From contig NKIB01014724.1 in assembly GCA_002256025.1 (NCBI GenBank), positions 1 through 41,135 of the forward strand: a stretch of 41,135 bases of DNA, given 5' to 3'. This stretch comes from Asterionella formosa (lineage: Eukaryota). Every line of letters begins with the position of its first letter. The first letter of the stretch is position 1. The translations under genes and the position numbers were made by a program. Of this stretch, positions 927 through 34,197 are shown piece after piece. A model generated the notes under the pieces. It was not told the DNA's origin. It saw only the letters and a program-made list of their open reading frames with translations, and did not search any database.

Positions 927-1709
927 ATGAGGTTCCATCGCTCGTCTATGGCGCTTCTGGGCATTGTGACCGGCATAAGGCTTGCTGCTGGATTTGCGCC
1001 TACTAAATTTGGTGTCACCAAGTTGTCGTACAGCATGTTGCAAAATATGAGTGAATGCAAGGAGGAGGAATGCGCCCTTCCAGATGACTTTTTTGATGTC
1101 GCGATTACTTCAGAGAAGAGTTCAGAGAAGAGCGCGATTCTTCGATCTACGGTGTTGTCCAATGTTCAAGGGAAAACCATCCTTCTTGGTGACACAATGG
1201 GACCCGACAAGTCGGTGGTAGTCTTTCTTCGACATCTCGGATGAGTGTTCTGCTGGAGTTATGCCAAGGATTGGTCTCAACTCCGGCCACAAATTGAGGC
1301 AGCAGGTGCTGTCGGTCCTATTTTTGTATCCATTGGAGATCAAGACAAGCTTCTGAAGTTCCTAGAGTTGAATCCATCTATTTCTCGAGACAGCATCTTT
1401 GTGGATGATCTTCAGATGGGCGCCTACACAGCGGTTGGATTTGGATCTATGGAGGATACATTCAAGAATCCTCCGAAGGACCTCAAGCTTAAGACTCCTA
1501 CAATTGGAGGTTTAGGTGCATGGATGAATTACTTGGGAAATGTCATGGAACTTTCTCCTGTTGATCGCAAGACAAAGAACTTTGAGGGAGTCAAACGCCT
1601 TGGAGGAACCTTTGTCGTTGACGGCGATGATGTTATCTACCAATGGAGTGATCGGTTGCCTGGTGACACCCCTGAACTTGTTGATGTCATGAAGTACGTG
1701 ACAGCCTAA
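927..1709 (+). CDS. Peroxiredoxin-like (AhpC/TSA_2; SelU/PRXL2/AAED1-like) selenoprotein, 260 aa, Sec at codon 106 (TGA 1242-1244), probable plastid-targeting presequence
   Basis: ORFs 927-1244 and 1245-1709 are contiguous and in frame across one TGA: VVVFLRHLG-U-VFCWSYA (UxxC). The downstream part has family motifs FVSIG and RLGGTFV...YQWSDRLPGD. SECIS in the 3' UTR. N-terminus has a hydrophobic stretch then AAG-FAP. Confidence 0.9.
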
Positions 1710-1780: not shown

Positions 1781-1844
1781 TGTTTCTGTGAATGACTTCC
1801 TTTGACAAATCATTGCGACATCGAAGGAATGAAGAACAACAACA
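1781..1844 (+). promoter_or_regulatory. Eukaryotic SECIS element in the selenoprotein 3' UTR
   Basis: ATGA 1792-1795, 11 nt spacer, AAA 1807-1809, GA 1831-1832. Upper helix TTCCTTTGA (1797-1805) pairs with TCGAAGGAA (1821-1829) with one G-U. Lower helix TGTTTCT pairs imperfectly with AGAACAACA. Possible apical TC/GA mini-stem. Confidence 0.88.
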
Positions 1845-6000: not shown

Positions 6001-6792
6001 CTATCGTTCACTCATGAGGATGTGTACCTGGTTCCAGGTACCAGGTACGGTACACATATCATAGAATTCATTGCATGTGACCTTTTATCTCACCGACGTA
6101 AATTTTTCGAAGTTGCCTGTATTACTGATATGCAACTCATCATCAGTCCAAACGAATGGTTGTGGGACGTGCGTTCCGGTATCATGCATGTATTGCCATC
6201 TCGACCGTTGCGTCGGCCGGGTGCGTGTTGACATATTTTTGCTGTATGGGCTGGAGGTCTAGATACTCTTTTTCATAACATCATGGTAGGTGTAGTATCA
6301 CCACAACACCAGGATCTTGATTCTTGTGTTTCATTCGTAGTTTACGAATTGCTTATTACCGGACACAGTTGTGTGAGAATCAACGGATGGTTGAGTAAGA
6401 ACGGTTTTTTTTAATTTGACAGCCGGCTAAATGATAAATGTATACCACATATACCGGTATACTATTTGAGGATATGACATTGATACAGTTCTACCGGTAC
6501 CAGGTACCTGGAATTCGTCTGAAACGCATGGGGAACGGTTGAACGGGAGCCAGCAAGTATTCATACGAGCCAGCCGGCAAGGAAATGTCACTGTGTAATG
6601 TCACGGTCCTTTTTGGTCAAGCAGGGAGCGACGACGTGGTTGCTTGCAATGTACCAGTATTTAATCGTTTGGCTTGCTTTGTGTGTTCCATCAACTCGCT
6701 AATAAAGTGTACACAATCCATCGACTTGTTGCCTGTAAATAGTACTTCACTTATCTTCCAATAATTAACTCAGAAGTTCTATAACTTTGAAA

Positions 6793-8091
6793 ATGTCTTT
6801 TGATCTAGGATGCTTCAGCTTTCCTGAATCACCCAGCGAAGCAGGGATCGCACCGACCTTGAGCTGGCGCATGGATCCAGCGAAGAGCTTGAGTGACTGG
6901 ACACTAAATATTATTCCCAAGACAAGTCATGATGCAAGCGTGAAAGACGTCCATGAGGTACAAACCTATCATGTTCATAGGACCTCCCTTGCCACTGGTC
7001 CCAGATTTAGTTTGTATTTTGAACATGAATTTCAAACAAAAGAATCCGATGCCAAGACGACCACCATTGAATTCGAACCATCGACTGCAGAAGCTATTCC
7101 TGTTATGCTTGACTTCATATACAGCCCTATTGGAAAGGTGAATGCTACTACTGATAATGCTGTAGCCTTGCGACACCTGGCCAATTATTTTGGCATACAC
7201 GCATTGTTCGACGCTGTCAATGATTTTGTTCACGTTGATTTGTCTCCCACCACAAGCCCCGTTTACCTTTCAGAGAGTGCCGTTTATTACGACGAAAAGA
7301 TTATGGATGCCGCCTTCAAGTTGTGTGTGACAAATTTTGGAAAGCTAGATGAGGACAGTCTGGCAGACCTTCCCCCTAAATTGTTCCGAAAAGTGGTTTT
7401 AGCACCTGACTTGATATGTGACAGCAAAGCTCTAAGTGTCCGTGTGGCTACCTTTTGGAAGAAGCACTCTTTGAAGCTGGATACCGGCTTGTTGAGGGAA
7501 CTAACGGATAACACTCTTATGCCAGAAATTCATCCGGAGTCTGCGGTTTATTTCCTCAAGTTGGCACTGGAACACAACCTCACAAACAATGTGGAAGTTA
7601 AATCGACACATGTGGTGGACGTGACAACCACGGAAGATGTAGAAGTCAATACTGTCAACACATCACTCAAAAGCCGATGTGAAGCGGCAGCGGCCAAAAA
7701 TTGGGATATTTCCTTGACAAAAGCGTTGACGAATGATGCCACAGACGAAGCGAAGCGTACTTATGAGCAACTCCCAGACTCAATTCGGATCAAAATTCTC
7801 GAGAATGCCATAATGTCCGCTTCGAAAGAACGAAGTCAATTGCATCAAGACCTCGGCCGATTTATTCGAGTGCCAGTCGAACATAAATTTGATGCATATG
7901 GCTTTATCTCCCACTATGTGGAAGGCGACAAGGCATTGAGTCGACCTCCATCAGCGATGCCGATGCTAACAGATCAAACATTAGATGGTTATCTCTTCCA
8001 CGCTGGTAGCGATGTATGGCCAGTTTTTTACTATAGTGGCGTCGGAGAAAGTAAGAAAGAATCCCAAAACGAAGTGGCTTCAACCAAGTAG
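6793..8091 (+). CDS. BTB/POZ-domain protein
   Basis: SLSDWTLNI...YHVHRTSLATGPRFSLYF...AIPVMLDFIY...NAVALRHLANYFGIHAL is a typical BTB pattern. Intronless ORF; first ATG at 6793. Confidence 0.85.
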   Translation: MSFDLGCFSFPESPSEAGIAPTLSWRMDPAKSLSDWTLNIIPKTSHDASVKDVHEVQTYHVHRTSLATGPRFSLYFEHEFQTKESDAKTTTIEFEPSTAEAIPVMLDFIYSPIGKVNATTDNAVALRHLANYFGIHALFDAVNDFVHVDLSPTTSPVYLSESAVYYDEKIMDAAFKLCVTNFGKLDEDSLADLPPKLFRKVVLAPDLICDSKALSVRVATFWKKHSLKLDTGLLRELTDNTLMPEIHPESAVYFLKLALEHNLTNNVEVKSTHVVDVTTTEDVEVNTVNTSLKSRCEAAAAKNWDISLTKALTNDATDEAKRTYEQLPDSIRIKILENAIMSASKERSQLHQDLGRFIRVPVEHKFDAYGFISHYVEGDKALSRPPSAMPMLTDQTLDGYLFHAGSDVWPVFYYSGVGESKKESQNEVASTK

Positions 8092-11495: not shown

Positions 11496-13685
11496 CTAGA
11501 TATCAGCATATTGTGCAGAGTTCCTGTTCACAGGAGGAATTCCAACAATACGTACATCCTTAGCTCGTGCACTGCGTGGACCTTTATTTACGCCATGATT
11601 GGCACCCCGATTACCATGGAGTTCCGCGTGTCCTCGGATTGATATTTCCTTATTATTTTTAAATAGGTTGTCACCACCAGCATTCGAACCCTCTTCACTA
11701 GTATCCATGGACATTTCGCTGACGATATCATCGAATTCCGGGGATACTTGTGATGACTCTTCAGCAGTGCTGTTATTGCGACTATATGCACTGCTTTCTC
11801 GTCGCTTCACCACCAAATCCAAAATACTTGCTCTCCTGGAATCATTTTCGGCACTCCACAAGCCCAAGAATTCTGCATAGTCAACTTTGTGATCGTGACT
11901 AAGACCCATACCTTCTGCTTCATCAATGATAGTATTCAAGTATGAACTGGGTACCGACTCACCCAGCAATTCCCTCAGATCTCCAACAGTAATGAATCCA
12001 GAGTCATCAGCATCAATTCGGTCGAAAGCTTCAGCAAGTCTTTCTTCACTAATGGTGCCCCGGGCTTCAATAGTGGCAGCAATAAATTCCGAGTAGTGGA
12101 TCAAACCACTATTGTCTAGGTCCATTGCACGGAACAGTCGTTTGCATTCGTCTTTGGTGTATTCGTACCCCTCTAGAGCAACAGTAAAATCTTCGAACGT
12201 AACGTCCCCTTTGTTGGAACAGTCAAACTCTCTAAACATTTTTTCCAAGAATCCAATCTCGTCGGATGTAGATTTGTGCGCCACCACCATGAGGGCTAAT
12301 TTCTTCAAGGTACTGTATTCTGCAAAATTCTCAATCGATGCTTGAATTTGATCCATCTTTCTGGTATAATCTACGCTCTGAGATCGCCTTCGTTGTAACA
12401 GAGATTCCAACCATGGTGAATGGAGGGCCATATCTGCTGTCGGCCGCGCGACTGGATTAAACTCCAACAAATCGACCACAAACTGTTTGGCTTCAATTGA
12501 AATGTATTTCCAAGTCCTCGCTTTGAAACTAAATTTTCCCTTGAGTAGTTTTCGTATGACATCCTTCCGTGTTTTACCATAGAATGGCATTGAGCTGCTT
12601 AACAACATGAATGCCAATACACCCACCGACCAAATGTCCACTTTGTTGGTGTAGTCTCCAGTCAAAACTTCTGGTGACATAGAATATACTGTCCCCACAG
12701 CATCATGCATCATTTCATCATCATCCTTGGCGTACTTTTTAGAAAGTCCAAAGTCAATAATCTTGACATCGGCAGTTGGTTTTGGAGTACTAAACATCTG
12801 TGTGATGGGAGTGATGTTCCAAATTAGATTGAGACAAAAAGTGAGAATATTCAAATGATGCAACAGATTTTCCAAAGATTTTGTTCAATATATACTAGTG
12901 TGCACTCAAGTGGTCTCACTTACAATATTTTCATACTTTAAATCCCGATGAGTGATTCCCATGGAATGCATATAGGATACAGCACTCAAGACAGACGCGG
13001 TGATGTTGGCGGCCTCCTCCTCCGTGTATGGATCTCTTGTATACAAATCTCCACCCGAGCACAGTTCCATGATAATATAAATTTGATGTTTGAAATCAAA
13101 GGTTTCCATGGCACGAACAATGTGAGGGTGGTCCATTTTCTTCAACATCTCCACTTCATTCTTCATTTCATCAATCAAGGCCTTGGAGGTAGTCTTGTCC
13201 AAAGCGATGGATTTAAGCGCAAAGAATGTGTCCTGATGCCCAAAAGTTACCATGCTCGAGACACCATGAGACGACCCACTGATGGAATCGGCACTCTTGC
13301 GTGAATGCGATGACATGTCGACGCGTCTCATGGAGGGTATGTGCAGTATATCTCTCGTCCGTTCTTTTTCTTCCGCTGTGCCACAACAGAGTTTAAAAAT
13401 CAACGCAAGGCGTTCCAAAATGTGCGACCTGGATTCGGATTTTAAGTAGTGCGCTCGAGATGAACCACCCACAGCTTCAGAGCGTTTCTTCACCTTGGAG
13501 ACTGATCCCATGGATCCAACACCAAGAACTGTGATGATTTCATAGTACTTCAATGGATCTCGATTCAAACGCTGACGCGTCAAGTTGTCATGAAGGCCCT
13601 TGATGGGCGTGAGCAGTTCTTTGGTGCTCACGCTATCATTGCTGTCAAACAGCTGGTCCGCTGCTGCTGAGTGGGAATTTCCCAT
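11496..13685 (-). CDS. Calcium-dependent protein kinase (CDPK), 2 exons (13685-12924, 12797-11496), N-myristoylation-like start
   Basis: Kinase motifs GVGSMGSV, ALK, HRDLKYENI, DFG, GTVYSMSPE. EF hands DCSNKGDVTFED, DLDNSGLIHYSE, DADDSGFITVGD. GT-AG intron 12923-12798. Starts MGNSHS. Confidence 0.92.
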
Positions 13686-14956
13686 TGCTTTGTCCCTTTC
13701 GCCGAGGTTGTGACCAATGGATAAAGGAATATTAAAAATTATTAAAATGCAACAGTGGACAAGGGGCTGTGACCACCATTATACTGTACATGCTTACCGG
13801 TACTCGATATTCATCATCCCAAGTATTGTACATACATAAATATACTTATATTTATGTAGCACATATTGTTCATCGTAATAGGTAGACTCTATTTAAAAAT
13901 ATTGAAAGATGTTAGCATGTAACTATAGGTATAGTACGTCTGTCGCTATCCGTAGAGCAGTGTTTATATGTGATACCAGTACCTGGTAACTGGTGCTGGT
14001 ACCAGGTACCAGGTACTCTCTATCCACTTGCGGTACCTTTCTGGTCGTCTATGTAGTTAGTACTGGTACCAGGTGGTACTCCAGTACTCCGTGCTCCACC
14101 CATTTGCAAATTTCGATGAGATGATAGGAAATATTCAAAATATATTTAATACGATGGGCAATAGTAAGCTAAAACTGCCTTACATACTCCTCTCAGTGAG
14201 TGGGCAGTAGGTAAGCGAATGGCGCCACAATAGCAAGGTTGTGAATTGCCTCAACAAGAAATACCCTTCTCAGCGGCTCCATGCTGTCTCATGTACCGGT
14301 ACCGGTACCAGGGTACATCTGTTCTAGCAGACATGAGATCACCTCAGGCTTGTTTTGGCCCCTCGACACTCCCCAAAACTATAAATAAAATACATCAATT
14401 CTACCCAATTCAATAAAATCATATGGCAATACAGTCGACATGAAGGAGTGATTGACCCTCCCCATCGTTAGTTTCCTTGCATGTCATGACATCTGCGATG
14501 CACTCCTCTGTTGGTCTGGCTTGAGTGATGCAGCACAGTGTTATGATGCTTGCCAAACCACTCCTATCTTATGTCCTATGTATTATGTGCTGCTGCTCCT
14601 CATCGTTCTCACTGCCCCCCACGTCTGAGTGACAAGGCAGAACCGTAACAACCCTCCTCAGCCTTCGCTTTCTTGCCAGCATGTAGATATCACATTTTTA
14701 TTGTCAACTTATATATACATAATCGGGATTCAGTCTGCTCCTAGAAGATTCGATTCAGATTCAAAGTTCACATCGATCAACAGCGCTGTTCCCTCGAGAT
14801 TTGACAACCCACTGAAACCTTGTCAGCTCCTTTGTCTTATCCACAGACGCAACGAACTGTCAACAATTCTCATCCATCACACAAACCAAAGACAAGCAGC
14901 ACTGTGATTGTAATCGACAACACAGGCATTACTTACGATAGACTTGACAACAGAAA

Positions 14957-17397
14957 ATGACACTGATTGTTCGGACCAATGTAATTGGAAACAAAAGCGC
15001 ACATGATAAGCATGTGAAATTCATCGACACGGAGAGAACAGAGCAAATAAACCTGTCAGAGGGAACCTTATCGTCCTTGTCAGATGGGTCTCTCCTACTG
15101 GTCAAGGCCAAGACCGATTCCCCTACAGTATACCGAAATCAAGAGTTGCGCTCCAATTTGACTAGAAATCTTACAAATCGAGATCCATTCTTTGTAAGTC
15201 ACAGCTTCCAAAATTCGTATCAGTTCGGATTTGTGGCATTAACTCACTCTTTCGTTTCTATTGATGCAGTACTACCAAATTGACAGTGTACTCGGTGTTG
15301 GATCCATGGGATCAGTAGCCAAGGTCCACAAACGACCTGGTGCGATTGGTGGTTCTGCTCGAAGTGAAATTGTTGATTCCTTCAAACGAGAAAAGAAGTT
15401 GAAAGAGTGCCTCAATTTTCCTCTATTGGGAGGTTTGTTTCAATATTGCATGAGACCGAATTTGAGTCCGTCCAACAGTCAAAGGGATTTGCTCCAGCCG
15501 CAGTCGACACATTCGATCTGCTCTTCATCAGGTGGCCGATACCAGGTCAGCTATGCACTCAAATCCATTCACTTGACTCATGTGACCGACCCATCATTTG
15601 TGGAAGAGCTCAAGAATGAAATTGAAATATTAAAGACGTTGGATCATCCACATATCGTACGCCCGATAGAAGTATATCAATATCGGAATCAATTATTTAT
15701 TGTCATGGAGTTATGCTCTGGGGGTGACTTGTATACAAGAGACCCATACACCGAGGAAGATGCAGCTCGTATCGTGAGTTGCATCCTTAGTGCAGTTACC
15801 TTTATGCATGCAAAGGGTGTCATTCATCGTGATTTGAAGGTAAGAAACAACGTGAGAACTAGCGGTTTGCATGAAAGTCAGTGTTTCTAACCTGCTTCGT
15901 CCGGTTTTGATAGTATGAAAACATCATGTTCGTTAACAGCACTCTACGATCGGAGATCAAAATTATTGATTTCGGATTGTCGAAAAAATACTCCAACGAC
16001 AAGACACCGCTCACGGAGGGTGTTGGAACGGTAGGTTTGCGCAGAAAAGGTTTTGTTTCTTGTCAAAAGTTTAATCAGTGATTCACTCTAATGATTTATC
16101 TTTTATGGCAGATTTACACCATGGCTCCCGAAGTCCTCAAGGGCACATACACTTCTCAAGCGGACATTTGGTCCATTGGCGTCATTACTTACATGCTTTT
16201 GTCATCACAGATGCCATTTTATGGACGAGAGCGTTGTCACATCATTGAACAGATCATGAAGTGCGAATTCGACTTTAAAGGACGCCGATGGAAGCGAGTC
16301 TCACCTCAAGCCAAGGCGTTTGTGGAAGACTTGTTAGTTTTGGACCCGGATGACCGAGTCACTGGCGATTGTGCATTTGGATCGAATTGGCTAAATCGTC
16401 GGTTTGCCACTACCGTACGGGGACCAACTGACGATGAGTTGGATACCATCATCAAGTCGTTCCAGAAATTTATCCGCTATAGCAGGTTGAAGAAGTTAGT
16501 ACGTCATGAAGTCGAATGTTTAAGTACGTTGCATGTTCTTACTATTAACTAACGATGATGATTTGAAATCTCCTTCTGCAGGCACTGATGGTCATCGCCC
16601 ACAAATCCACAACAGAGGAAATTGGCATCCTTCGCAAGGTTTTTGATAAGTTTGACACTAAAAAGAAAGGACAACTGGTGTTTGAAGAATTCAGTGAATG
16701 TCTTAAACCGTATGGATTTTCCAACGACGATTTGATTAATCTATTTGTGGGCATAGTGAGTTGATTGTTTTCGTGGCATTTGTCTCCGTAGCTTTCATAC
16801 TTGATTATAACTAATTTTTCTTCTTCTCAGGATTTAGATGGTACGGGTATTATTCGATACACCGAGTTTCTCGCCGCAGCCATCGAAACTCAAGGTTTCA
16901 TCGACGAGGGCCGTTTAGCAGAAGCGTTTGACTGTCTCGACAGTGATGATTCTGGATTTATTTCAGTAGAAAACTTAGCGGGATTTCTTGGAGATCAAAT
17001 ACCAACAAATGAAATCTCGAGAATTCTGAAAGAATCGTCGCTCACAGCCGAAAGCCAGGTCTCGTATCCGGAATTCTTGGCTCTGTGGGATGACCGGTGT
17101 CAGCCAAGCTATGAAGGGACATATGCATCTAATTTATCAAAGCCCGACTATAATCATCGCAGCAGTGTTCCGAGCACCGTGGTAGAAGTAACAAGCAACA
17201 TGCAAGATGAGAGTGAGAGTGAAGTATCTTCCTTAGCTCGTGCAAACTACTTAGATGTAAAAATGTGCTCTCAACGCAAACTTGAAAAAGCCCAGAAAAT
17301 TGAGGTGAATGACGCCCTCAAAATTATCTTTGATGAGAAGCCAGAGCCTATCATGGCTTTTGAACATAATAATCTTGTCGTGAAGACTATGGCATGA
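14957..17397 (+). CDS. Calcium-dependent protein kinase (CDPK), 6 exons (14957-15193, 15270-15839, 15914-16030, 16112-16498, 16582-16755, 16831-17397)
   Basis: Five phase-0 GT-AG introns join a continuous kinase (HRDLK|YENIM, DFG, GVGT|IYTMAPE) to EF hands DLDGTGIIRYTE and DSDDSGFISVEN. Start codon is less certain. Confidence 0.9.
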
Positions 17398-17899: not shown

Positions 17900-18317
17900 A
17901 ATTTGGATGGATTTTTCAAGGAGTTCTCGGAAACTGCCACTGGTGTGAGTGCTTTTGGCCAGACACGAGTGTATACTATGGACAAGGATCAGATGGATTT
18001 GGCCTCACTGTTCACAATGATCCTTAAAGGACAAGCGGAAGGTTTGTATTCTGAGTGGGGTATTAGTAACACATCTTTGGATGAGGTCTTTTGTGCCATT
18101 ACTGCCAAATCGGAGGGTGCCCAGGCCAATGAATTCTAATTCTAGATAGTGTGGATATTTGGGTGAATTCGTCATGATGGGGGCAAGAAATATCATCCAC
18201 TCAGTAGTTGAGGTAAAATGTCCACATCAATTCAAAATACGCATAGCACAGCATCAGAAAGCTATAGAGACGGAGTTAGCAAAGAGATAATGGTATGAGC
18301 CTGTGATAATTAATGTG
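17900..18317 (+). pseudogene. Duplicated fragment of the ABCA gene 3' end and 3' flank (copy of 28296-28714)
   Basis: About 418 bp with about 8 differences by manual comparison. Encodes NLDGF...GAQANEF* with no upstream ABC sequence. Confidence 0.95.
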
Positions 18318-19813
18318 CATTAGGGGCAACATTTGTAAGAGTGTTTATGACATCTTCAGACGCATCATCATTATGCAATTCATGGTCTTGTGCATCTTCC
18401 ATTTGGGATTCCTTGATACCAAGTGCGTCTGCATTACCAGTAAATGTAAACATATTGGCTCTTGGATCGCATATTCCATGCCAGGTGGCCCATCGGATAT
18501 TTCTGCTGTTGATTACCTTTTTTGTCACAGGGTTGTACATCCGGTAGGTATTGCCAGCACGATCATCGGAGTATCCAATCATGACACATTTAACTGCCTT
18601 GGGGTCTAGTTTCTTTTGTTTTTGTCCAAGGGTGACATATCCGATGCGACCAAATTCAACAAGATTCCTGTAGATCATAGGTTGCTTGTCGTAGAATTTC
18701 CAGAAAGGACATTTTGAGCCACTGGAATTGGACACAATATTTGTGACTCTTGTGTGTGTTGGCAGCTTCCGCCCAGAGTGTTACTTGAGCCTTTTCAGAG
18801 AATTTCGCTTTTATCATGGCGGCAGAGCTGCGGTCACGTATGGTCGCAAATTTACGTTTGACAATGCCGTTCTGCTGAGGCGTGTAGGGGGCAGTTATTT
18901 CGATAGCAAGTCCGTGTTTCTCGCATAGCTCAGTTAATGCCTTGACATTTTCGCCACCATTGTCACATCGAAGTTTCTTGAGGATTTAATTAGCACTCTT
19001 CAACTTGATGACAAATTTTCGACAATTTTCGACATTTCACTTTTCTTCTTAACAAAGAAGCTCCATGCTTTGCTGCTATAGTCATCGACAACAAGGACCC
19101 AATAATTGCTTCCAATGATAGACTTTTTGTAGGGCCCGCTGATGTCAGTACACAAACGCTCACCTGCATGAGTTGCTCTTGTTGTAGAGAACTTTGGTAC
19201 TGCTTTGGCCTTAGCTTTGGCAAATGCGCACCCTTCACAAGGTGTGAGACTGCCTGTGACTTCGATATTCAGTGTCTTCAATGTAGCTCGTAGTGCCACC
19301 TCACCAATGTGTCCGAATTTATCATGTGCCTCGCATGTCAATTTTGATTTGCTTAGTAGGTATGATAACTGGTGGTTGCGTGGTAGTTGTACTAGTCATG
19401 ACGGTTTCAATAGTACCAAGGTCATGTGTGCCTTCAAAGTAGTACAGGAGCTCTTTGCCTTCTGATTTCAATTCAATGTTCTCGAGTTCATTTGTCTTAC
19501 TTAGACTGAGTGTCTGTCCTTTGATACTGACTTCGTATTCTGATTTCTGTACAAAGACTCCGATACTCACAATATTCTTGTGGAAAAGCGGAGTATATCG
19601 GACTTTTTTTTAATGTAGGGTCTTTCCATTGCTTGATGTCACCAAAACGTCACCTCGTTTTGTGCATAGCACTTCCTTTCCATCACCAACAATCACGCGC
19701 ACCTTGACTTTTTCAACGTTTGTCATACCAAGTTCACTGGATGTGATATGACTGGTAGCTCCAGTGTCGGCCAACCATCGTTCTTCTCCTCCACACGATG
19801 CACAATACTCAAA

Positions 19814-19836
19814 ATTATTATTATTATTATTATTAT
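19814..19836. repeat. (ATT)n microsatellite inside the Copia polyprotein (in-frame poly-Asn between gag and protease)
   Basis: Minus-strand frame reads SDNNNNNNNFEYCASCGGEERWLADTG. Confidence 0.85.
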
Positions 19837-20827
19837 CAGAAATAAATCCGAAACAATGGATCTCTTCCTCTTCTTCTTCAGCTTCGACAGCACAACCGAC
19901 AAAAAACGACGTCTCCTTCTTGTCAGCAGTCTTCTTCTTCTCATCAGGGCAGTCCTTGGCGATGTGACCAGCGAATTTGTTGCAATTGAATCACTTTATG
20001 CCTTTTCCGGTCTTCTCTCCATCCGCTTTTGATCCTTTAGAGCGACAATCCGCCGATTTGTGTCCTTGCTTTCTGCAGTTGCTGCGACAAAGACCTTTGA
20101 ACTTTCCTCCTGCAAACAGGGCTATCTCGTTAGATGACTTTTCAGTTTTGAACTTGTTGCGCTTGTAGAAAGCCCGGATTTTGTTCTTCAGTTCTGTTAG
20201 AGTGATTGCCGTCATTCCTTCCACAACTGTGATCACCTCACTATACTCAGAAGGAAGCTTGTCAATTATGTGGGCAATGACTTCAATGTCTTGTTTCTGA
20301 AAAGAGCTATTGATTTGCGTCATTCTGTTGCGAATCATGTCGAGTTTAATGAACCATTCATCAGGGTCACTCTTTGTAGACTCAAGGTTGCATTTGCTAA
20401 ACTCGCCGGAAAGTTGGATCAAATCAGATGTTTCATGAGGAGCATATCTGTCACATAGATTTTTCCAGGCTAGGAAAGCATCCCCATCAATCAAATGTGC
20501 AGTTTTTGCTTGATTCACCAAACCAAACGCAATGCCTGTGCAGCTCATTATTAGTTGTTGATATGCCTTGTCATTGGCTTCATAGATTTTCTTTTCTGCA
20601 TCAGTAGCAGAGGTTGCATATGTTGTGTCACTGCATGGTTTCGTATCACTTGCATAGACAAGGCGAAAGCCCTTGATCTTAGATAGAGATAGAGTTTTGA
20701 CACTCCATTCATGCCAGTTTGATTCCTCTCCATCAAACTTTATCAAGCAAATGACCTCGCCCAATTTCTCATCAGCCATGTTGCTGCGTTGGTAATCTGT
20801 GTAAAGCAATAGGTCCATTTATAAACA

Positions 20828-21096: not shown

Positions 21097-22042
21097 CATA
21101 TTGAATATTGTTTTACTTACATTGTTGGCAGCTTCAATGGCGACGACATGCCTGTGAATAGTTCATTACATAGAACATTTAACTTTCCAAATATTCCATC
21201 CCATCTTATTAATTGTGTGTTCGTCTTCATTAACATTAGTTCAAATATTTCTTCACCGGAAACAGTTTCTCTGTATAATATTGACGACATGTACATTGAT
21301 GGAATGCTGTTAACCCTAACTCAAATCATCCTAGATTTTTTCAGCGACAACATGATGAAGGATTCTCCAGCTGCTCACAGCCACTACCGCCCTGTCTTCT
21401 CTTGTGTTTTGTATGTACAAATGAATCGCAACATGATAGCTAAATAATAATATTCTATTGCCTACGAGGACCTAAAGAATTATAGCACGTTCCTTTGTCT
21501 ATGACGAGAAAATTATTTGGTGTTTGGTTCCACCTCGAAAAAAATGTACAGGGGGGTCCAGAAACCAGGGGGGATCCAGGACAATGAAGTACCGGTATAC
21601 GGTAAGTCATATGTGAGTAAACTGACTCATGTTCATGACAAGACTCAAAGATTGATTCATATTTAAGTAAAGATTGATTCATGTTCATGACTAGACCCAA
21701 AATGGTCATGACTGGGCTAATTTGGAGACACAAACAAGATTCATTTAACTTGTCTGTTTCAACTCTCTTGACAAGTCCTTTGGAGTATGACCCTTGTGAA
21801 TCCCATAACCGGGTGCCTGGGAACCATGAGCTAGCTAATACCGGTACCGGTATACTGTATGAGCGATAGACCGGAGTCGTATGCATTATGCAGAAATATT
21901 GCTTGGTTTGCAAAAGACATTACCGCTATTCCTCTCATAATCTGTCGCCATCGCCCATCTACACTCAAAAAGCAAGCTCGTGTACATGCATTGTTACTGA
22001 TCATTATTGCTTGCTCTCTATTGCGAGTGTCCTACTGACACA

Positions 22043-25000
22043 ATGGAAGAGACAAATCAGCCTGTGCTTTCTCAATCAGATGTTCTTGTCGAGGAGGAGG
22101 ATCATCCTCTCGATGACATCGAATTCGTGGAGTCAGAGGGAGCTGCTGGTTCCCCGCAAACGTTGAAAGCTCGTTGGAGTGTATCCGTGGCAGCATTGAT
22201 AAGAAAGAACATACTCCTGGTATGGACTTCCAAGATTTCGTTGTTCGTAATGTTGCTATTCCCGGCCATGGCGGTTGGCATCTCCACCTACCTTGACACA
22301 TTATCAAGCACCAACTACAGTAACTATTATGAACAAGCTGTCATTGACAGCCTCGCTATCGAGACGTTGGACAACGGAGATCCATTGGAAGGGTGTCAAT
22401 GGTTTGACGTGTATGGCGAGATGACAAGAACTTATACCAGCGACTGTATCACGTTGTTGTTTACTGTGTCAGGTTTGAACAATGGCAATGATGTGGATTC
22501 TATCAATAGGATCATGGCATCCATTGCAGATGAATCTGATTTGAATTATTCTCCCATTGTTCTAGATTCTTTGTATATTCCTCAACCGCCATTTCAACAA
22601 CAAATTCTTGGCGTTCGTTCCTTGGACGACATTGGAGAATTCTTGGTGCAACACCCAGGACGTGCAGCTGGTATTGTAGTCTTTCAAGAAGCAAAAGGAA
22701 CTGACTTTCTTGTGGATATTTGGTACAACGTCACTGAAAATCTTGGAAACAATCGACCAGAAACACAAGAACGATTGCGTGCTGCGTTGGGACGAGGTGT
22801 TTTGAAGGCCATACTGGGCAAGACGGCTGTCGATGTGGTCATTCGGACTCGGAGCTTTCTATCGGATGTCGTTGTTGCTGAAGTGAATACAAAGCAAAAT
22901 AATACAAACTACTCTGAGGTCGGAATTGGAGCATATTTCATGGGTTTCAGTCTCGCATTGGCCTACGTTCTGGCCAGCATTGTTTTGTCAACCTACTTGG
23001 CTCGCGAGAAACAGGAAGGGTTGATTGGAAGTTTGCGGGTGGTTGGCATGACTGATTCCGCATATTGGGCTTCGTGGTTTTTCATTGGAACGACATTTGA
23101 TGTGTTGTCGTCGTTTCTGGCCATGGCGCTTGCCTACACTATTGATGCTCCAGTCTTGACGCAATCAGACTTTTTCACGCCTTGGATCTTTCTTATATTT
23201 GCTGGGATGTCTATGTACGCATTTGTCACTCTTACTGTTGGGATTGTAACTCAGCGACGTGCCGTGTATGGATTACAATTCGTCGTGATGATTCTTGTAC
23301 TTGTATCGTCTTCGTATGGCGCTTTAAGCTCGGGGACGACATATGACATAGCGGGTTTCGTCTTTCGGGCATTTATTCCAGGATTTCTCATTGAAAGTGT
23401 TTCTCTGCGTGTTGCTACGTATAGCTCATTGGCGAGTGCTAATGAGAATGTCACCTTGACATATACGTTCGCCACTCTTTTTGATCGAATTGGAGAGTGT
23501 AATGTGACAATTTTGCAGGAGGAAGCAAGGTGTGAATATGTGAAATTGTTTGATTCTGCATGTTGGAAATATGCCGACTGTAGAATAAGCGATTTGGCGC
23601 AAAATGGGAATTACAATTGCGCTCCTGAACATTGCTATTACTTTCCAGTTTCTGGCGCCTTTTCGCTATTGATAATGGCCCTACAAACTGCTCTCTTCGT
23701 ATTCTTGACGTGGTATTTCTTTAAGGTTATTCCTTCCGGAAATGGAATTCATCGCAAGCCTTGGTTTCTCGCTAGCCATCGTTATTGGCGACCTAGATCT
23801 GTTGTGTCTGATACAGCGATTGCAGCTGAACAGCTGTTATCGAAGCAGGAACAGAGTATTCGGATTTTTGGCATATGCAAATTGTTTGGGGGTTTCAAGG
23901 CTTTGGATGAAGTCAATCTAGAAATGGCAAATGGGCAGGTATGTGAAATTTGCTTGTTCGAAAAATGATACCCTTCCCAAATGGCTCATGTTTTTTTTCC
24001 TACTGCGCGCAGGTCTTTGTAATGTTGGGTCACAATGGTGCAGGTGTGTTTGGTGTTAATTTGCTCTTTGATGCTGTAAAGATATGATCGTCATTCTATG
24101 TGTTTGTAATGCGCTCGCCATTAGAGTACTTTTCCTCACACTCCCCTATTTTTGCAGGTAAAACAACTCTAATCAATCTTTTGACGGGGAAGATATCTCC
24201 TTCCAGCGGCGATGCATACGTCTTGGGACATTCTGTCGTCAACGATGTCGAAAGTATTCAGAAGTTGGTCGGATCAGTCCCTCAGCACGATTTGCTTTGG
24301 AGCGAGTTGTCTGCCTACGAACACATTCGGTTGTTTGCCACTATAAAAGGCATCGTACAAGCAAGGGGAAGAAATTCGAGAGAAAATGCGATTTCTAGTA
24401 TCCTGGAAAAAGTCCATTTGGAAAAGGAGGCCAAGCAATCCGTCGGAGGGTACAGTGGCGGTATGAAACGTCGCCTGTCGATTGCGCTAGCGGGAGTCGG
24501 GAGTCCGGCCATTCTCTTCATGGATGAACGTAAGTTATGTTCCCTTTTCCTTTCCTGTGATCGAGGCGTTTGTTGCATACTCGTGTTTCATATTTAATTC
24601 TAATCATCATTTCTCACCATCGTGTGGCATCGTAGCCACGACCGGTATCGATCCGTTGAATAGACGCCGCATTTGGAAGCTGATTCAAGATCTGAAGAAG
24701 GGAAGGGTCATTGTCATTACTACGCATTTAATGCAGGAGGCCGATTCATTGGGAGACTATGTGGCAATCTTAGACCATGGTCGGGTCCAAGCGAAAGGGA
24801 CTCCATTGAACTTGAAGACAGAACATGGCAGTGGATATACCTTAAACATAGTGACTGATGTCGAAAATGTCGATCGTGTGTGCGCATTGGCCAAACAGGC
24901 AATTCCTACAGTCGAGTTGGTAAATAATGCTGCCGGAAGTGTCGCGATTGGGATCCCTCAAGATGGCTTAGAGAAGGTTCCCCAACTGGCTAGGGATCTT

Positions 25001-28000
25001 GAGGAAGAAAATATTATCCGAGAATGGGGTGTGTCTCAATCGACGTTGGAAGAAGTCTTTTTGCGACTAGTAAAGCGTGATTCTGCTTCAAATGCTGCGA
25101 CTGTTACATCCTTGATCTCAAATCGGGTAAGAAGCGAGCGGGAACCTGGACAGTCTAATTTTGTCGTTGGTGCCATGGATCCTCCTTTCGAGGAGGGAGA
25201 TATGGAAGCTACCTTTGCGACAAAGCACATCTGGATTCTTCAGGTCCGGTCGTTGATGTGGAAGGCTTTGCTTCTCCAGCGTCGGTCAATAGTTAGCACG
25301 TTTGTCTTTTTTGCCATTCCAGTTGGCCTTTTGCTCCTACTATATTTCGTCGCATTCAAAGACCTAAAGGTGAACAATGAGAACGAAATTCTGATCTACC
25401 CGCAAGCAATTGCTAGTATTGATGTCGATTACTGTACGTTTCATTGGCTAGTTTCCTCTGCGATGCCCGCAGCTCCCGACCCGATGTGGTACCATAGCAC
25501 TCCAATTGGTATTGCTACCGCATTCCAGGTCGGTCAGACGCCTCCAGGATCATCATACGATCACCTTGCCTTGATATGGAGCTTGAGCATCGCCTCAAAC
25601 GTGACTGTGTCTCAAGTCGAAGATGCTATTCAATTTGCTTTTCGCAACGAGCTCAAGCGTGCTCTCAATTCAGTTGATCAAGCCATTGCCGATGCGGAAT
25701 GTAAGGGCGACGTTTGCGGGCCATGCTTCGTCGATCCATTTGCTTTGACTGTTACCATGGAGGACAATGATTTCTTGTTCTCCTTGCCTGGTTCATTTGG
25801 CATCAGGTTACCGCTCTGTCCTTTGTCTGGATCGTATGATGCATGTCCCTTGAATGTCGTTCGTTTTGTGGTTCTTCAGGCATCATTCGCGACGACTGTT
25901 GCTGAACAGCTTGGGACTCTCGTATCACTTATAACAGGGCCGTCGTATGTGTACCCAAATTCGTTCCAGTCAATTCCGAAAGTTAACACAGTAACCAAAT
26001 ATAACTCGTGTTTGTCGTGCGAGGACCATATTTTGCTTTGGCTCTCGGGGAATGGCGCTGGCAGTTTTGCCGAGCTAGTGAATAAAGATGGCACAGAAGC
26101 TGTGGTTACCGAACTTGATGTTCTTGCGGTGGTGCAGGCAAACCGACAAGAATTGGAAAAACGAAATGAAGATATTGACAACATGACTTATTCGGCCTGC
26201 GCATATTTGCAGGACCAGTATGACTATAATGGAGTTGAAAGGGGCTGGATCGTGAACAAGGAAGTCCCAGCTGTGTTACCCACTTCATGGAATTCCTCCG
26301 ACATTTGTGATATTGCGGAGGAAGCACGAAAAGCTTACCAGAGCTTATTTCCAGACGCGGCATTACAAGTATCGTCGTTCGATGTCCTTGGAGACCAGGT
26401 GGCTGTGAACATGGTTGTTGTAATGTTTGAAATGTTATATTATCCAACTATGGGGGTCTACAACCTTAAAGATCAAGCAGTTTTTTCTGTGTATTGCAAT
26501 GAATATGATGCCGACCAAAATGGAACTTGCTTTCCCAATGCCAGCCTAAGCTGCTCCATGATAGTGCCTCCGGCCAGTCAGGTTTGCAGCATACCTGATG
26601 AAGGCCGGTCGCTGCTTATAGAATCTACATACAACTTGCTCCTCAATGCAGCACAAGGCGGAACCCTTCGAGTGAATGAGAAAGCCAAAAGCCTTTACAT
26701 GTTACAGTATGAGCCTGCTCTGAGCCTCCAAGAATTGGCACTGATGGCGTGCTTCTATGCATTGTTCGTGGCCATGTTGATGCCAACCACGAGCAGTACC
26801 ATTGTCCTCGAGAAGCACCAACGCTACGTGTTTTCAATGCTGCTCAATGGGCTTTCGCTGCGCAACTACTGGATTGCCACCTATGTTTTCCATGCAATCA
26901 TGAGTTTGATGGTCGTGGCATTTTCCATTGTGTTTGGTGTGGTATTGCGTCTTAAACCACTTGAGAACCTTTCATATGCATACTTGACACTCATTGTCAT
27001 TACATATATTCATGCGCAGTTTGGCTTTGTTGCCCTGTTTAGTATTTTCTTTTCCAAAGAACGACTCTCTGCCATTGTGTTGAGTCTTGGTAGCATTATC
27101 CTTTTCTGTACAGCGTACATTTTGTTGGCTGTTGTGACCTCGATTTTGAGTCAATGGCCTGGAGCGCTTAGTCTTGTCCCCATGTTGGGGGCATCCCGTG
27201 CCATATTTCTGCTGCTTTGGAAAAGAAACTTTGACGAAGTTCTCAGCATTGCTGGTATTCTCTTTGGTAGTGGCACTCTTTATCTAATGATTGGTATTTA
27301 TGTGCACGGCGCTACCGGTGTTGGTGCACTTTGGAAACCCAATTGCAGTTCCAAAGTGACTGGTGGTACTAAGAAGGACGAAGGCCAAATTGAAACATTG
27401 AATGAGGAAGATGATGAGGAAAGCCATGACTTTGATATTCGACATGAAGCGATTCGAGCCCTTGCCTTGTCACCTGACGAAACAGCCATCAAGATGGCAC
27501 ATTTGGGTAAGGTTTTCCCCGCCCATCCAAATCCGAAATATGCTGTTGTGGATTTGAGCATGGCCATAGACTATGGAGAAATTTTCGGTTTGTTAGGACC
27601 AAATGGAGCTGGTGAGGAATAGTATAGAGTGTGATATGTGTTTGCAAATGCAGAAAATATGACTCACTCTTATTCATCTCGTCACAGGAAAGACAACTGT
27701 CATCTCGATGTTGGTGGGGCAGTTGGATCCCAGTCAAGGTGCTGCATATGTTGGCGGCTTCCATACTGTCGAGCAACGTAAACAGGCATTGAACGAGCTA
27801 GGTATCGTTCCTCAGTTTGATGTGCTCTATCCTGAGTTGAGTGTCAAGGAGCATTTGCAAATGTATGCAGCTGTGAAAGGAGTAGTTCGACAGGAAAATC
27901 TGATGTGGGCTACGCATATTGCCAATAAGGTATCTCTTGCAGGCGAGTTGTTCAATAAACCCTGCAAGAATCTAAGTGGAGGAATGAAGCGACGGTTGTC

Positions 28001-28535
28001 AATTGCTATTGCTCTGTTGTCAAATCCCAAAATTTTATTCTTAGATGAGCCAACAACGGGCCTTGATCCTGATATGAAACGTTCCATTTGGGAGATTGTT
28101 GAGCATATGCGCCATGGTCGATGCATCATTTTAACCACACATGCCATGGATGAAGCGGAAACTTTGTGTAACCGTATTGGTATTATGGCAAATGGAAGTC
28201 TCAAGTGCATTGGTACTCCTGCCCACTTGCGCAAGCGTTACGGGAGCACATTTGAGTTGACATTTACCATTGCACCATCAGCTGATGGTGATGGTAATTT
28301 GGATGGATTTTTGAAGGAGTTCTCGGAAACTGCCACTTGTGTGAGTGCTTTTGGCCAGACACGAGTGTATACTATGGACAAGGATCAGATGGATTTGGCC
28401 TCACTGTTCACAATGATCCTTAAAGGACAAGCGGAAGATTTGTATTCTGAGTGGGGTATTAGTAACACATCTTTGGATGAGGTCTTTTGTGCCATTACTG
28501 CCGAATCGGAGGGTGCCCAGGCCAATGAATTCTAA
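22043..28535 (+). CDS. Full-size ABC transporter subfamily A (TMD-NBD-TMD-NBD), ~2040 aa, 5 exons (22043-23938, 24013-24043, 24158-24529, 24636-27611, 27688-28535)
   Basis: Walker A GHNGAGKTT and GPNGAGKTT. Signatures YSGGMKRRLS and LSGGMKRRLS. DEPTTG twice, TTH switch, TLEEVF/SLDEVF. GT-AG junctions restore the frame (6123 nt total). Confidence 0.93.
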
Positions 28536-28779: not shown

Positions 28780-29641
28780 CTACTTAATAAACTTGTCCAT
28801 GAATCTCTTGTGAAAGTCATTCCTCACTGTATCATTGATGAATCTCTTTTTCGGTTGTGGTTCTCCCTTGGCTTGATTCCGAAAAACAACATCGTCGTTC
28901 CATCGCCTCTTGAGCCGTCCGGCATCATTCGAAGCCGACGATAGGAGTGGATTCCCAACGAGTGCTGCTTCTTGGTCTTGTAATTCTTCTTCCTCTTGAC
29001 GTTGCTTATCTTGTTCAGCCTTTTGAGCATCTCGTTCGGCTCTAATTTTGGCCAGTTCCGCCTGAAGTGCTTCTTCATCGTCTTCATCGTCTCCATCGTC
29101 GTCGTCCGAAGAATTGTCCAAATCATCGGAAGAATCATCGGCAGACCAACCTTCGGAATCGTTGTCGTCGTTGTCAGCATCATCGTACTTGGCCTTGACT
29201 CTTTGTTTCATGGCGATGCGAGTGAAAAAGAATACCGGTAAGAACGAGTAGCAAGAAATAAAACGACCACACACAGAAGTAAACAGGATTCTTATACAAG
29301 AGAGGACGAAGCATCCATAAAACGGAAAAGGATATACTCAACTGTTCAACGTTCACTTCTTCCGTTTGTTTCAGTAACTTCATTCTTCCCTCTTGTTCAA
29401 TCATTGGATTCATAGTTCGACGTCCCAGCGTTGCTGTAGTTTTCGTGTGTACAGCTGCTGCTGCTTCCAATTTCATCAAGGATTCTTTCAAGGCTGCCTT
29501 CTTGTCAATAATCGCGCGATGTTTCAATTGCGTGTGGGACGCCAAATCCAAATGGGAGACAGCAATGCCAGTAGAACCATATCCTCCTTCGTTGCCACGA
29601 CCCACCGCAGCCTTCCATGTTGGTCGATGTGCCGTCGTCAT
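28780..29641 (-). CDS. CWC15: Spliceosomal protein Cwc15/Cwf15, 2 exons (probable intron 29342-29201)
   Basis: N-terminal MTTAHRPTW...DLASHTQLKHR and C-terminal KRRWNDDVVFRNQAKGE...RFINDTVRNDFHKRFMDKFIK. Splice sites are weak, so the exact junction is uncertain. Confidence 0.92.
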
Positions 29642-29997
29642 GATGGGAGAGAGAGAGGGGAGAGAGTCAAGGACTATATATATATAGATATATGTATGCA
29701 GAGGAATGACTGATGTGGGATGGTTTCCTGCTTGATTGAGGATTTTAGGGGACGACAATTGCCTACCGGAGTAAAATGTCGAACTGAAGGGCGGGGCGGG
29801 GCGGGGCCTCCTGTGATGTTCACGCCTTCTTCCAAGATCATGTAAAGAGCGAAGGTGCTTCCGTCGTATCCGGTCGATTTGTTCGACTACCTGTAGAAAC
29901 CAATAGGAACAGTAAGTATACTTACTTACTATGTACACTGTACATACGGCTATACCAAAAAACGTCCTTGACAATCATCAGCCGACGACACATCAGC

Positions 29998-30064
29998 ATA
30001 CCGGTACATGGGTACCTGGTACCAGGGTACCAGGTACCTGGTACTAGGAACCGTACCAGGTACC
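29998..30064. repeat. GGTACC/CCWGG/ACCGGT palindrome cluster between divergent CWC15 and NAF1
   Basis: taccggtac...ggtacctggtaccagggtaccaggtacctggtac...gtaccaggtacc. Confidence 0.85.
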
Positions 30065-30465
30065 ACACTCAACCAATGTTCGCGCACAAATGCACGAGCA
30101 AAGCACAGCAGCCAACCAAAAATACTACCGGTATGTACGCTAGGCGGTATGCCCGGAAGTATGATTATTTCTTTTTCCTCCCCCCGGCAAACTATCGGTA
30201 TGTCATAACATAGGATGCGACATGATATAAATATATTCATTTAGTGATATTCATATAGACTACTGTCATACCGATAGATAAAAACGTACGATAGTCTTGG
30301 TTCGTTGAGGATCGGCTCCTTCCTGCCTACCGGTACCTGGTACCGGTATCACCAAATCGTGACTGCTATCATATCAGATACATACCAGGTACATCCATCC
30401 ATCAATGCTGCTGATGCGCAACACTGACTGTTCACACAACACATCTTACCCCACTCTCCTTTCAA

Positions 30466-31737
30466 ATGACAACAACAATACCGATACAATATCAACACAC
30501 TACCGGTAGACAAGATGGAAAGCGTCAACAAGCAGAATATGAAGAAGTAGAACCTGTCGTGGATGATTTGGCCGTTGCCGCCTCATTTGCACAACAAGTG
30601 GCGCTGCAAAGTCACACCATCACAGCAACGTTCCATGAGCCAGATGAAAATGAATTGGATATCAATAACGATGATGAAGTGACTGCGGTTGATGAAACAC
30701 TCGTTGATACCAACACTGCCGAATCTTCTGACGATGAATCACAAGTGGATTTGTCCGAAGCCTTGGCCAATATGCAAGACAACGATGAGGACGACGAGGA
30801 CGTGATGGTTGCCACAATATTAGCACCACCCAAAACTCAACACGAAATTTTACAAGAGGAGATTGTGGCGCTGACGTTGTCAATTCAAGAACAAGACAAG
30901 CTGAGGCACCATCCTAGTTCCTTCATACTGGCGGGTCATGTCACAACTACCATGAGTGGGGGGACTGTCATTGTTCAAAGTGCTGAGGCTGCCTTGTTAG
31001 ATGAGGGGACATTATTACTTTTACAAAATGAAGATCAATGGCTACCATTAGGAAGGATTTTGGAAGTTTTTGGACCAGTGAGTCGGCCGCTTTATACTAT
31101 TCGCCTGCCAGATATAAAGAAGCAGTCCATCAAAGACGAAATTGATGATGACCAAAATTTAGACCTTTCCAAAGAACCACCATATTCAACACCAGAGGAC
31201 TACTCCATCATTCTTCAAACCAAACCACCTGTTTATTTTATTCAGGAGGAAGCCAAGGTTTTGGATACACATGGCATTATGCGAAACAGTGGAAAGGGAT
31301 GTGATGCTTCTAACTTTTACGACGAAGAGGTGCTAAATATCAATGATCTGTACTTTAGTGATGATGAGCAAGAAAGACTATTCAAAAATCGTCATAAAAA
31401 GAAGTCACTCAAGCAACCCGTTGCTAAAACAATGTCTTCGAATCGACCAGTTCCTACGGGCTTTTATGCACCTCCACCACAACAACAGCAGCACCCCTAT
31501 CCAATAAAACAACAAACAAACATGACATTTGGATATCCACCATCGAATCAGTCCAGCACTGTCTATTATCCAACTGGTTTCTATCCAATGTATCAAACAC
31601 CAGCTGTTCAAATGCATCCCTATCCCGCAGGTTATGCACACCCACCGCCACCACCACCGCCGCCGCCACCACCCCCACCACAGTGCGCTCATCGACTCCC
31701 GGAGGAAGAATCAGATACGGTTTATTATGACAATTAA
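30466..31737 (+). CDS. NAF1: H/ACA RNP assembly factor Naf1 (Gar1/Naf1 domain)
   Basis: LLDEGTLL, LGRILEVFGPVSRPLY, KGCDASNFYDEEV, FSDDEQE. Acidic N-terminus and Pro-rich C-terminus. Confidence 0.88.
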   Translation: MTTTIPIQYQHTTGRQDGKRQQAEYEEVEPVVDDLAVAASFAQQVALQSHTITATFHEPDENELDINNDDEVTAVDETLVDTNTAESSDDESQVDLSEALANMQDNDEDDEDVMVATILAPPKTQHEILQEEIVALTLSIQEQDKLRHHPSSFILAGHVTTTMSGGTVIVQSAEAALLDEGTLLLLQNEDQWLPLGRILEVFGPVSRPLYTIRLPDIKKQSIKDEIDDDQNLDLSKEPPYSTPEDYSIILQTKPPVYFIQEEAKVLDTHGIMRNSGKGCDASNFYDEEVLNINDLYFSDDEQERLFKNRHKKKSLKQPVAKTMSSNRPVPTGFYAPPPQQQQHPYPIKQQTNMTFGYPPSNQSSTVYYPTGFYPMYQTPAVQMHPYPAGYAHPPPPPPPPPPPPPQCAHRLPEEESDTVYYDN

Positions 31738-31940
31738 AATTGATTACCACTACTATTTCGACAAAGGCTAAACTAGAATCATGTGCCCACGACAATACCA
31801 AAACAAACATACAAATATCATTCCAATCATATTCTAGTCAACACCCCACAGAACAGCCAGCCACTGCAGGTTTCAAAACCATCGGGACCGTTCATTCCAA
31901 GAGTACTACCGGTATACTTGCCAAGAAAAATTGCATTTTC

Positions 31941-33500: not shown

Positions 33501-33749
33501 GGTGAAAGCAAATGGTGTTTTTGAACGGCAAACAATTCAACCAGGGTTCCCATGACTGAAAATGGATGACATCAAAATCACAGGATCAGCGTACCAGGTA
33601 CCACATTATGGCTGTATGTAGCTACCGGTACGCCTGCCTGTTTTTGCTATGTAGGAATGCGACACAAAATATGTAGGAGACCGTTGATAGGTACTGGTAT
33701 AGTCGTCAAACATCACCTACGTACTGCTACTCCTACCAATATACCTTTA

Positions 33750-33815
33750 CCAGGTACTACCGGTATACCCGTAGATAATTACACCAGTACCGGTACCGGT
33801 ACCGGTACCGGTACC
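33750..33815. repeat. (ACCGGT)n/GGTACC palindromic array between divergent PIGV and cyclophilin genes
   Basis: gtaccggtaccggtaccggtaccggtacc at ~33787-33815, plus nearby copies. Confidence 0.9.
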
Positions 33816-34197
33816 TAAATATATGTACAGGTTTGTACTACCGGTATGATGTGTGTATATATCATACACATGTTTTTTTCTACGAGCGAATATTTTACAC
33901 ACCCGTTTCGAGGTACCAGGAACCACGTGGCTGACGTATTGTACCTAGTTATGCCGGTCATCTAAATCAATTGATCGGCTTTCGGAGTTAGATAACCGTC
34001 CGTTGTCAAAACACGCGTGTCATTCGCCAGTTGTGATGTGGATCTTCCTCATTCAAGGCCTGACGATGGACACCAAGCAATGCATTTTTAATCATAAACA
34101 AAGGAATTACCGAAAAGTGAACACGACAAAGATTCACCACTTGCTGAACCTTCTATAGCTTATTTGTACTAACCGTGGATGAGTAGAGTCCAGAGAA

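Follow-up and report, generated by a model that had tools for sequence, protein, structure and literature searches.

A predicted plastid-stromal selenoprotein oxidoreductase of the PRXL2/SELENOU-like family in Asterionella formosa

The SelU1 and SelU2 selenoproteins of T. pseudonana belong to the SELENOU/PRXL2 family (PF13911; Lobanov et al. 2007, PMC2375036). We analyzed a gene of Asterionella formosa whose product falls in the same Pfam family. It lies in a window of 41,135 nucleotides, which is the whole stretch of DNA that we considered (contig NKIB01014724.1, positions 1 to 41,135, of GenBank assembly GCA_002256025.1). In the accessible part of the 2007 paper, SelU1 and SelU2 resemble our protein in having selenocysteine (Sec) as the first residue of a UxxC motif and a GG-x-F strand near the C-terminus. 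These portions also show RRPG-U in SelU1 and SelU2, as in the paralogue L006 (described below), while our protein has RHLG-U-x-x-C-W along with a bipartite leader and a C-x-x-P arm. By eye, the part of additional file 2 of the same paper that covers Chlamydomonas reinhardtii SelU shows U-x-x-C-W followed by a VSIG strand, as in our protein, and an R/A/S-rich N-terminal extension that resembles a chloroplast transit peptide. C. reinhardtii has a primary plastid, hence no ER step, unlike our protein.

T. pseudonana also encodes Thaps3a_1131, which is a clear homologue of our protein by shared motifs, PCxxP arm included. Its gene model skips the catalytic segment, which leaves no redox motif, and its row in Table S7 (PMC4329603), as far as that table is available, has no selenoprotein mark. 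The skipped segment presumably contains a TGA. By the description alone in the accessible part of Jiang et al. 2020, AhpC_b is a UxxC protein of the AhpC_TSA type with only prokaryotic homologues, while our family has many eukaryotic ones. The land-plant homologues have Cys instead of Sec and a single-step import. For example, mango XP_044470429.1 is 31% identical to our protein over 163 residues, with RHFG-CxxC-W and an N-terminal extension. The AAED1-like proteins At2g37240 and At5g65840 of Arabidopsis are presumably homologues as well. In the accessible text of two papers, At2g37240 was detected in isolated plastids (PMC10400147) and is listed without clear localisation or function (PMC8195503). 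The best structural match is human PGFS (PRXL2B; PDB 9US9 and 9USA), which has CxxC at the same place as our UxxC. PGFS is just ~20% identical to our protein, is not a selenoprotein, and lacks the plastid leader and the Cys arm; the likeness seen is in the fold.

Selenoproteins of the secretory pathway, such as SELENOM and SELENOF, have long been known, and there is an apicoplast-associated selenoprotein in Plasmodium. It would therefore be nothing unusual for Sec to be inserted by ribosomes bound to the ER. The available text of Pitsch et al. 2010 (PMC3095285) calls Chlamydomonas Sec-GPx1 and GPx2 chloroplast-targeted in one place and only putatively organellar in another. These proteins are from another family than ours and from a primary plastid, but with them the literature already contains predicted chloroplast selenoproteins of Chlamydomonas, and the idea of a selenoprotein in a plastid is not novel. 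According to the accessible part of PMC8834552, none of the 24 selenoproteins of O. tauri has a predicted chloroplast transit peptide, which counts against a plastid reading; the same part describes a signal-peptide class among them.

We found no selenoprotein of a diatom plastid in the titles and abstract openings of the literature that we searched, a set that mostly leaves out subscription papers. The words "plastid", "signal peptide", and "locali" are absent from the accessible main text of the algal selenoproteome survey (Jiang 2020). The available parts of PMC7230881 (SELU1 included), PMC6254913, and PMC6155587 give no localisation for this family, and there is no row of experimental localisation for its homologues in the accessible supplements of PMC6683858 and PMC7403612 or in the available text of 10.1101/573709. 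In the part of the Schober 2019 supplement that is available, Thaps3a_1131 appears only in the search database.

Our main reading, with a probability of about 0.82, is that the gene encodes a nucleus-encoded, plastid-stromal selenoprotein oxidoreductase of the PRXL2/SELENOU-like type. The gene and its features are:

927..1709, + strand: selenoprotein gene, intronless; 260 amino acids with TGA as Sec; AhpC-TSA_2 (PRXL2/SELENOU-like) thioredoxin fold
927..992, + strand: predicted ER signal peptide, residues 1-22 (ASAFind matrix score, hydropathy)
993..1049, + strand: predicted transit peptide, residues 23 to ~41; starts with F, 0 acidic residues, transit score 5.41
1056..1058, + strand: C44, first Cys of CKEEEC; not conserved (Cys in 2/52 rows of alignment A3)
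1071..1082, + strand: C49-A-L-P52 (C-x-x-P), with C in 47/52 and P in 40/52 rows; in an acidic, poorly ordered N-terminal arm
1242..1253, + strand: redox motif U106-V-F-C109, with TGA 1242-1244 as Sec codon; 52/52 rows have C or U at both columns
1792..1833, + strand: SECIS-like element, with AUGA-C, a 9-bp helix, unpaired AAA, a small apical stem, and U-GA-A

The gene encodes a selenoprotein, as the first-pass annotation had claimed: it has kept its TGA and is accompanied by a SECIS-like element and by tRNA-Sec in the genome. Provided that TGA 1242-1244 is read as Sec, positions 927-1709 (+) form a single frame of 260 codons, and the active site is RHLG-U-V-F-C-W. We examined contigs from four sequencing runs (three are on record as RNA, and the type of the other one was guessed); runs that contributed only small shares were left aside. 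In all four, the TGA was covered and no other letter was seen there. None of the four had a joint within the gene, so we rejected an intron that would remove the TGA. (Run X2 has a joint at 636-766, upstream of the gene, with non-canonical ends, which we left unused.) The samples that best match the gene are from lakes and fresh water. We also collected 69 metagenome loci; in 62 of them, but not in the other 7, the motif could be read in a single frame. Among the 62 motif-bearing loci, the Sec position is TGA in 60 and a Cys codon in 2.

The helix of the SECIS-like element pairs 1797-1805 with 1821-1829 (9 bp). Relative to shuffled sequences, the 35-nt core is stable (z = -2.58) and the wider 86-nt fold is not (z = 0.21); folding of the whole 3' region or of the 86-nt piece was no better than shuffles. 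Where 150 nt or more of 3' sequence was available, a relaxed pattern (the SECIS core plus a paired helix), which was written after the UTRs had been inspected, matched 34 of the 54 distinct TGA loci, with 0.34 expected, and neither of the two Cys loci. A strict ungapped pattern, set earlier, matched 13/54 loci, with 0.7 expected. An Rfam scan of 900-2600 found no SECIS family, just three chance matches, and a loose SECIS pattern matched thousands of places genome-wide and was uninformative. For tRNA-Sec, the genome has four matches over the Rfam cut-off (one at G000:C5416, two at C1782, and one at C5787), and two of these are ~320 bases apart.

It had also been proposed, in the first-pass annotation, that the protein is targeted to the complex plastid, given a hydrophobic stretch, an AxG/FAP site, and an S/T/K-rich segment without acidic residues that together resemble a bipartite presequence. 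All three are present as quoted. The protein begins with MRFHRSSMALLGIVTGIRLAAG followed by FAPTKFGVTKLSYSMLQNMSECKEEECALP, with the predicted cleavage between the two. We scored this region with the ASAFind matrix (Table S2 of PMC4329603; published transit cut-off 2), which we applied by itself rather than after SignalP. The matrix agrees with the proposal. Of the 23 positions that we scanned, the best cleavage site is RLAAG/FAPTK, between G22 and F23, with a score of 6.50 (the runner-up scores 4.41). The transit score is 5.41, and F at +1 supplies most of it (3.25). F23, at +1 of the best-scoring site, is one of the F/W/Y/L residues of the ASAFind criterion. For comparison, matrix scores within the mature part reach 5.15 at most. 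In the accessible part of PMC4329603, F at +1 with a transit score above 2 is the criterion for a stromal protein.

The h-region of the signal peptide is MALLGIVTGI, the best 8-residue hydropathy is 2.41, and A at -3 and G at -1 fit the -3/-1 rule. The 20 residues past the cut include 2 K, 5 S/T, and 0 D/E. The first acid is E43, and the transit peptide probably ends at M41/S42, because this is where acidic residues begin. The sequence has no second hydrophobic segment past the transit peptide, so we rejected a thylakoid-lumen leader. The matrix gives very little weight to R at -5, where it is rare and where our protein has R18, and the score of 6.50 is 15th from the bottom among 54 family scores, in the lower third.

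A single sequence is weak evidence for a presequence, because 21 of the 251 unrelated ATG frames within the window pass a loose four-point test for a bipartite leader (F at +1; A, G, or S at -1; transit score >2; hydropathy of at least 1.6). The main evidence is that 45 of 54 family N-termini, which share kinship and so are not 54 independent trials, pass this test from the first Met, ours included, while just 4.8 are expected if residues 2-60 are shuffled. (The 54 N-termini are 63 translations minus 5 duplicates and 4 incomplete N-termini.) If any of the first three Met may serve as the start, 47/54 pass. A small residue followed by F is kept at the equivalent place across the family. Also, Gruber et al. 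2015 (PMC4329603), in the available portion of Table S7, give a SignalP D of 0.818 for the T. pseudonana homologue Thaps3a_1131 and list it as "Plastid, high confidence". The targeting route is not new. Plastid targeting of this homologue was already predicted in 2015. Since the import tag is common to most relatives, our gene is probably part of a widespread, under-annotated chloroplast redox family and not wholly new. One Sec subclade with RHLA-U-VYC (L061, L063, L064, L067, and L073) has several members with R-rich leaders, closer in appearance to mitochondrial than to bipartite ones, and their composition suggests that retargeting is possible.

The leader might be read in other ways. Its 42 residues are basic and acid-free, with R2, R5, R18, K27, and K33 and no acid before E43, so it might target the protein to mitochondria, or to both plastids and mitochondria, and members of the small subclade with R-rich, weakly hydrophobic leaders (L061, L064, L067) might fit this. 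However, a ten-residue hydrophobic stretch is followed by A-x-G/F-A-P, a small residue precedes F at the same place family-wide, and the T. pseudonana homologue is SignalP-positive. We consider mitochondrial or dual targeting to be unlikely. If the signal peptide acts alone, then the protein would go no further than the chloroplast ER or periplastid compartment, or it would be secreted. The transit peptide is short, at ~19 residues, and many known selenoproteins reside in oxidising compartments. But F at +1 with a transit score above 2 is what is expected for stromal proteins, and a KDEL-like end is absent from our protein, which makes a signal peptide alone very unlikely. Indeed, none of the 63 locus translations has a KDEL-like C-terminus, and we rejected ER retention by such an end.

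The protein might also start or stop at another codon. There is an in-frame stop at 912-914, so ATG 927, which is the earliest in-frame ATG downstream of it, is the first possible start (its context is ACC-ATG, with A at -3). Starting from the second in-frame ATG, at 948, would shorten the signal peptide to 15 residues and leave the cut unchanged. Starting from M37 (1035) or M41 (1047), which are immediately ahead of the mature region, would give a cytosolic enzyme, and the upstream stretch would be incidental. The favorable position of ATG 927 argues against this, and so does the leader frame, which is intact in the 95%-identical L009, with such leaders found family-wide. Also, RNA contigs of two separate studies reach 903 and 909, upstream of ATG 927, although this is a weak hint because contigs cannot prove the start or exclude DNA. 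We view a cytosolic enzyme from M37 or M41 as highly improbable; a minor leaky-scanning isoform is conceivable. Finally, if TGA 1242 were a true stop, in a pseudogene or a split gene, then only a piece of 105 residues would be imported. Rfam has no SECIS match here, and public databases carry both halves as separate proteins. Nevertheless, we give this almost no weight, given TGA at the catalytic column in 60/62 loci with Cys codons in the other two, the SECIS core in 34/54 TGA loci but 0/2 Cys loci, and the four tRNA-Sec matches. Returning to the plastid stroma, the features of the leader predict it as the likely location. Points that count against our main reading are the low-weight R at -5, the lower-third score, the 21/251 unrelated frames, the low confidence of the C49 arm in both AlphaFold models, the marginal Pfam score (see below), and the lack of an Rfam SECIS.

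By sequence and structure, the gene belongs to the PRXL2/SELENOU-like family, separate from the RRPG-type SelU paralogues. The match to Pfam PF13911 (AhpC-TSA_2) is 28.1 bits, just above the cut-off of 27, and the match to the NCBIfam model for SelL-related redox proteins (NF040769) is 56.5 bits, well below its cut-off of 120. The core is confident in both AlphaFold models (mean pLDDT 87), and it has a thioredoxin/peroxiredoxin-like fold with (U/C)xxC. When compared to PDB with Foldseek, the best match was human PGFS (E = 1e-7), followed by Bcp4 and Tpx; PGFS was also the sole match from a sequence search of PDB, at E = 0.98. In place of the canonical SelU context, RRPG-(U/C)xxC-R, our protein has RHLG-UVFC-W, and in a tree of 50 chosen rows, which has long branches, its subfamily groups apart from the RRPG-type paralogues L005 and L006.

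The same tree has two Cys groups nested among the TGA forms. The nested Cys forms are P0008/P0096 (Aulacoseira), L017, L062, and the CxWC group P0019-P0042. These are apparent Sec-to-Cys reversions, judging from the tree, and the SECIS pattern is absent from the two loci that we checked. In P0006, P0112, and P0144, the redox motif has been lost (D-x-x-S or S-x-x-T) and the remaining sequence has been kept. With a profile, we found 709 representatives (E up to 0.001); among the 150 that were listed, many start just past the Sec position. We looked up 20 relatives, and the named ones are from Euglena (2), an ochromonad, a pedinophyte, Nitzschia, and mango. The named relatives are all from plastid-bearing algae or plants (diatoms, the ochromonad, Euglena, the pedinophyte, and mango); among close homologues, those with names are from diatoms. 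Cys relatives exist in Euglena, a green alga, and mango. The Euglena homologue has two N-terminal hydrophobic segments; its transcript id, EG_transcript_15704, does not appear in the available text of Hammond 2020 or of the plastid-proteome preprint. Many homologues (such as P0012, P0018, L013, L040, and L059) have a C-terminal extension that ends in F/L-rich words, which is perhaps an amphipathic membrane anchor. Our protein does not have this extension.

CKEEEC, at the N-terminus of the mature protein, had been suggested as an extra redox or metal site, with conservation of CxxxxC in orthologues as the check. The pair did not hold up. At the C44 column of the 52-row alignment, Cys occurs solely in our protein and in its 95%-identical relative L009, while the second Cys is kept in 47/52 rows, so we discarded the idea that CxxxxC is a conserved site for redox chemistry or metal binding. 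(At 4/54 loci, there is CxC instead of CxxxxC.) What is conserved is the second Cys, as part of a single C-x-x-P. This C-x-x-P is ~50-60 residues before the Sec, is a family trait, and aligns in the Euglena gracilis homologue as well. In a Cys-only subclade, C-x-x-P was kept in 1 of the 14 database proteins, but these share ancestry, so this amounts to one event.

C49 (codon 1071-1073), the single conserved Cys, is the more interesting residue of CKEEEC. Its conservation makes it a candidate for a resolving or shuttle thiol. Ribonucleotide reductase and MsrA have shuttle tails, and C49 in its variable acidic arm might be similar by analogy, but this is a lead only. In both AlphaFold models, the arm with C49 has low pLDDT and is not positioned near any other part, which speaks neither for nor against docking of C49. 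The arm also contains an exact 12-nt tandem duplication at 1109-1132 (SEKS twice). L009, with 256 amino acids, does not have this duplication, so the arm tolerates changes in length.

The gene, TGA, SECIS-like hairpin, tRNA-Sec, bipartite presequence, and fold can be read from the sequence, and the import and chemistry that we propose come from this anatomy and from knowledge of the family. During translation in the cytosol, Sec would be inserted under the direction of the SECIS. The signal peptide would bring the chain into the chloroplast ER and would be cut off between G22 and F23. The transit peptide, which begins with F, would then take the chain across the remaining three membranes and would be removed near M41/S42. 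In the stroma, U106 might be an exposed nucleophile that reduces a peroxide or a protein disulfide. If it is a peroxide, then the likeness to PGFS and BCP would point, at low confidence, to a lipid hydroperoxide or endoperoxide. C109 would resolve U106 to a selenenylsulfide, and stromal thioredoxin or glutathione would re-reduce it. A tentative further suggestion is that C49, on its flexible acidic arm, relays electrons into the U106-C109 center or regulates it. The substrate is much less certain than the identity of the protein as a plastid-stromal oxidoreductase.

More speculatively, and rather unlikely as a whole, diatoms might reserve several selenoenzymes for their four-membrane plastid, namely the one encoded here, L007, and possibly others. 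In this subfamily, the conserved Cys of the mobile arm would be part of a three-center relay from stromal thioredoxin to UxxC, and selenium supply would directly set part of the plastid's peroxide or thiol-redox capacity. The family would have stayed hidden because gene callers split the gene at TGA or splice it out. Many diatoms need selenium for growth (according to the list in the accessible part of PMC6254913), and if this picture is true, then it helps to explain why. A widespread, expressed, and predicted plastid selenoenzyme is in any case a concrete candidate for the site of action of selenium in photosynthesis.

Our analysis also corrects annotations, as public models cut the protein at the TGA or splice out the active site (T. 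pseudonana, Fistulifera). The public models for P0050 (Fistulifera GAX16615.1) and Thaps3a_1131 omit the catalytic segment, probably through a false intron around the TGA. As a result, lists of plastid proteomes hold the protein without its catalytic motif. In the literature that we searched, the plastid members have no assigned substrate, and the conserved N-terminal Cys is a simple target for mutagenesis.

The genome encodes other members of the family. L007:915-1421 (G000:C2910) is a second Sec paralogue, which contains an intron and has RSLG-U-PLC. It has a strong bipartite leader (VDA/FTP, with a score of 7.94), an acidic arm with CGC at a place similar to that of the C49 arm, and a SECIS-like hairpin near L007:2022. 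From its leader and motif, L007 is probably another plastid selenoprotein. L006 (G000:C12845) is an RRPG-type SelU paralogue with TGA (RRPG-U-VLC), and the relaxed SECIS pattern had no match on L006. L005 (G000:C15072) is an RRPG-type SelU paralogue with Cys.

Within the window, the selenoprotein gene is tail to tail with a YacP-like NYN domain gene (1948-2517, - strand), which has a short hydrophobic N-terminus; RNA contigs span both genes. Further along are a BTB protein (6769-8091), two divergently arranged genes with kinase and EF-hand domains (CDPK-like; 11496-13778 on the - strand and 15243-17397 on the + strand), and pieces of a Copia-type LTR retrotransposon (gag and SH3-like domains; 18310-20818, - strand). 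Two further regions (22001-28535 on the + strand, and 29180-39390) encode an ABCA-like transporter, Cwc15, Gar1/Naf1, a PIG-V mannosyltransferase, a cyclophilin, and an RSN1/OSCA-type channel.
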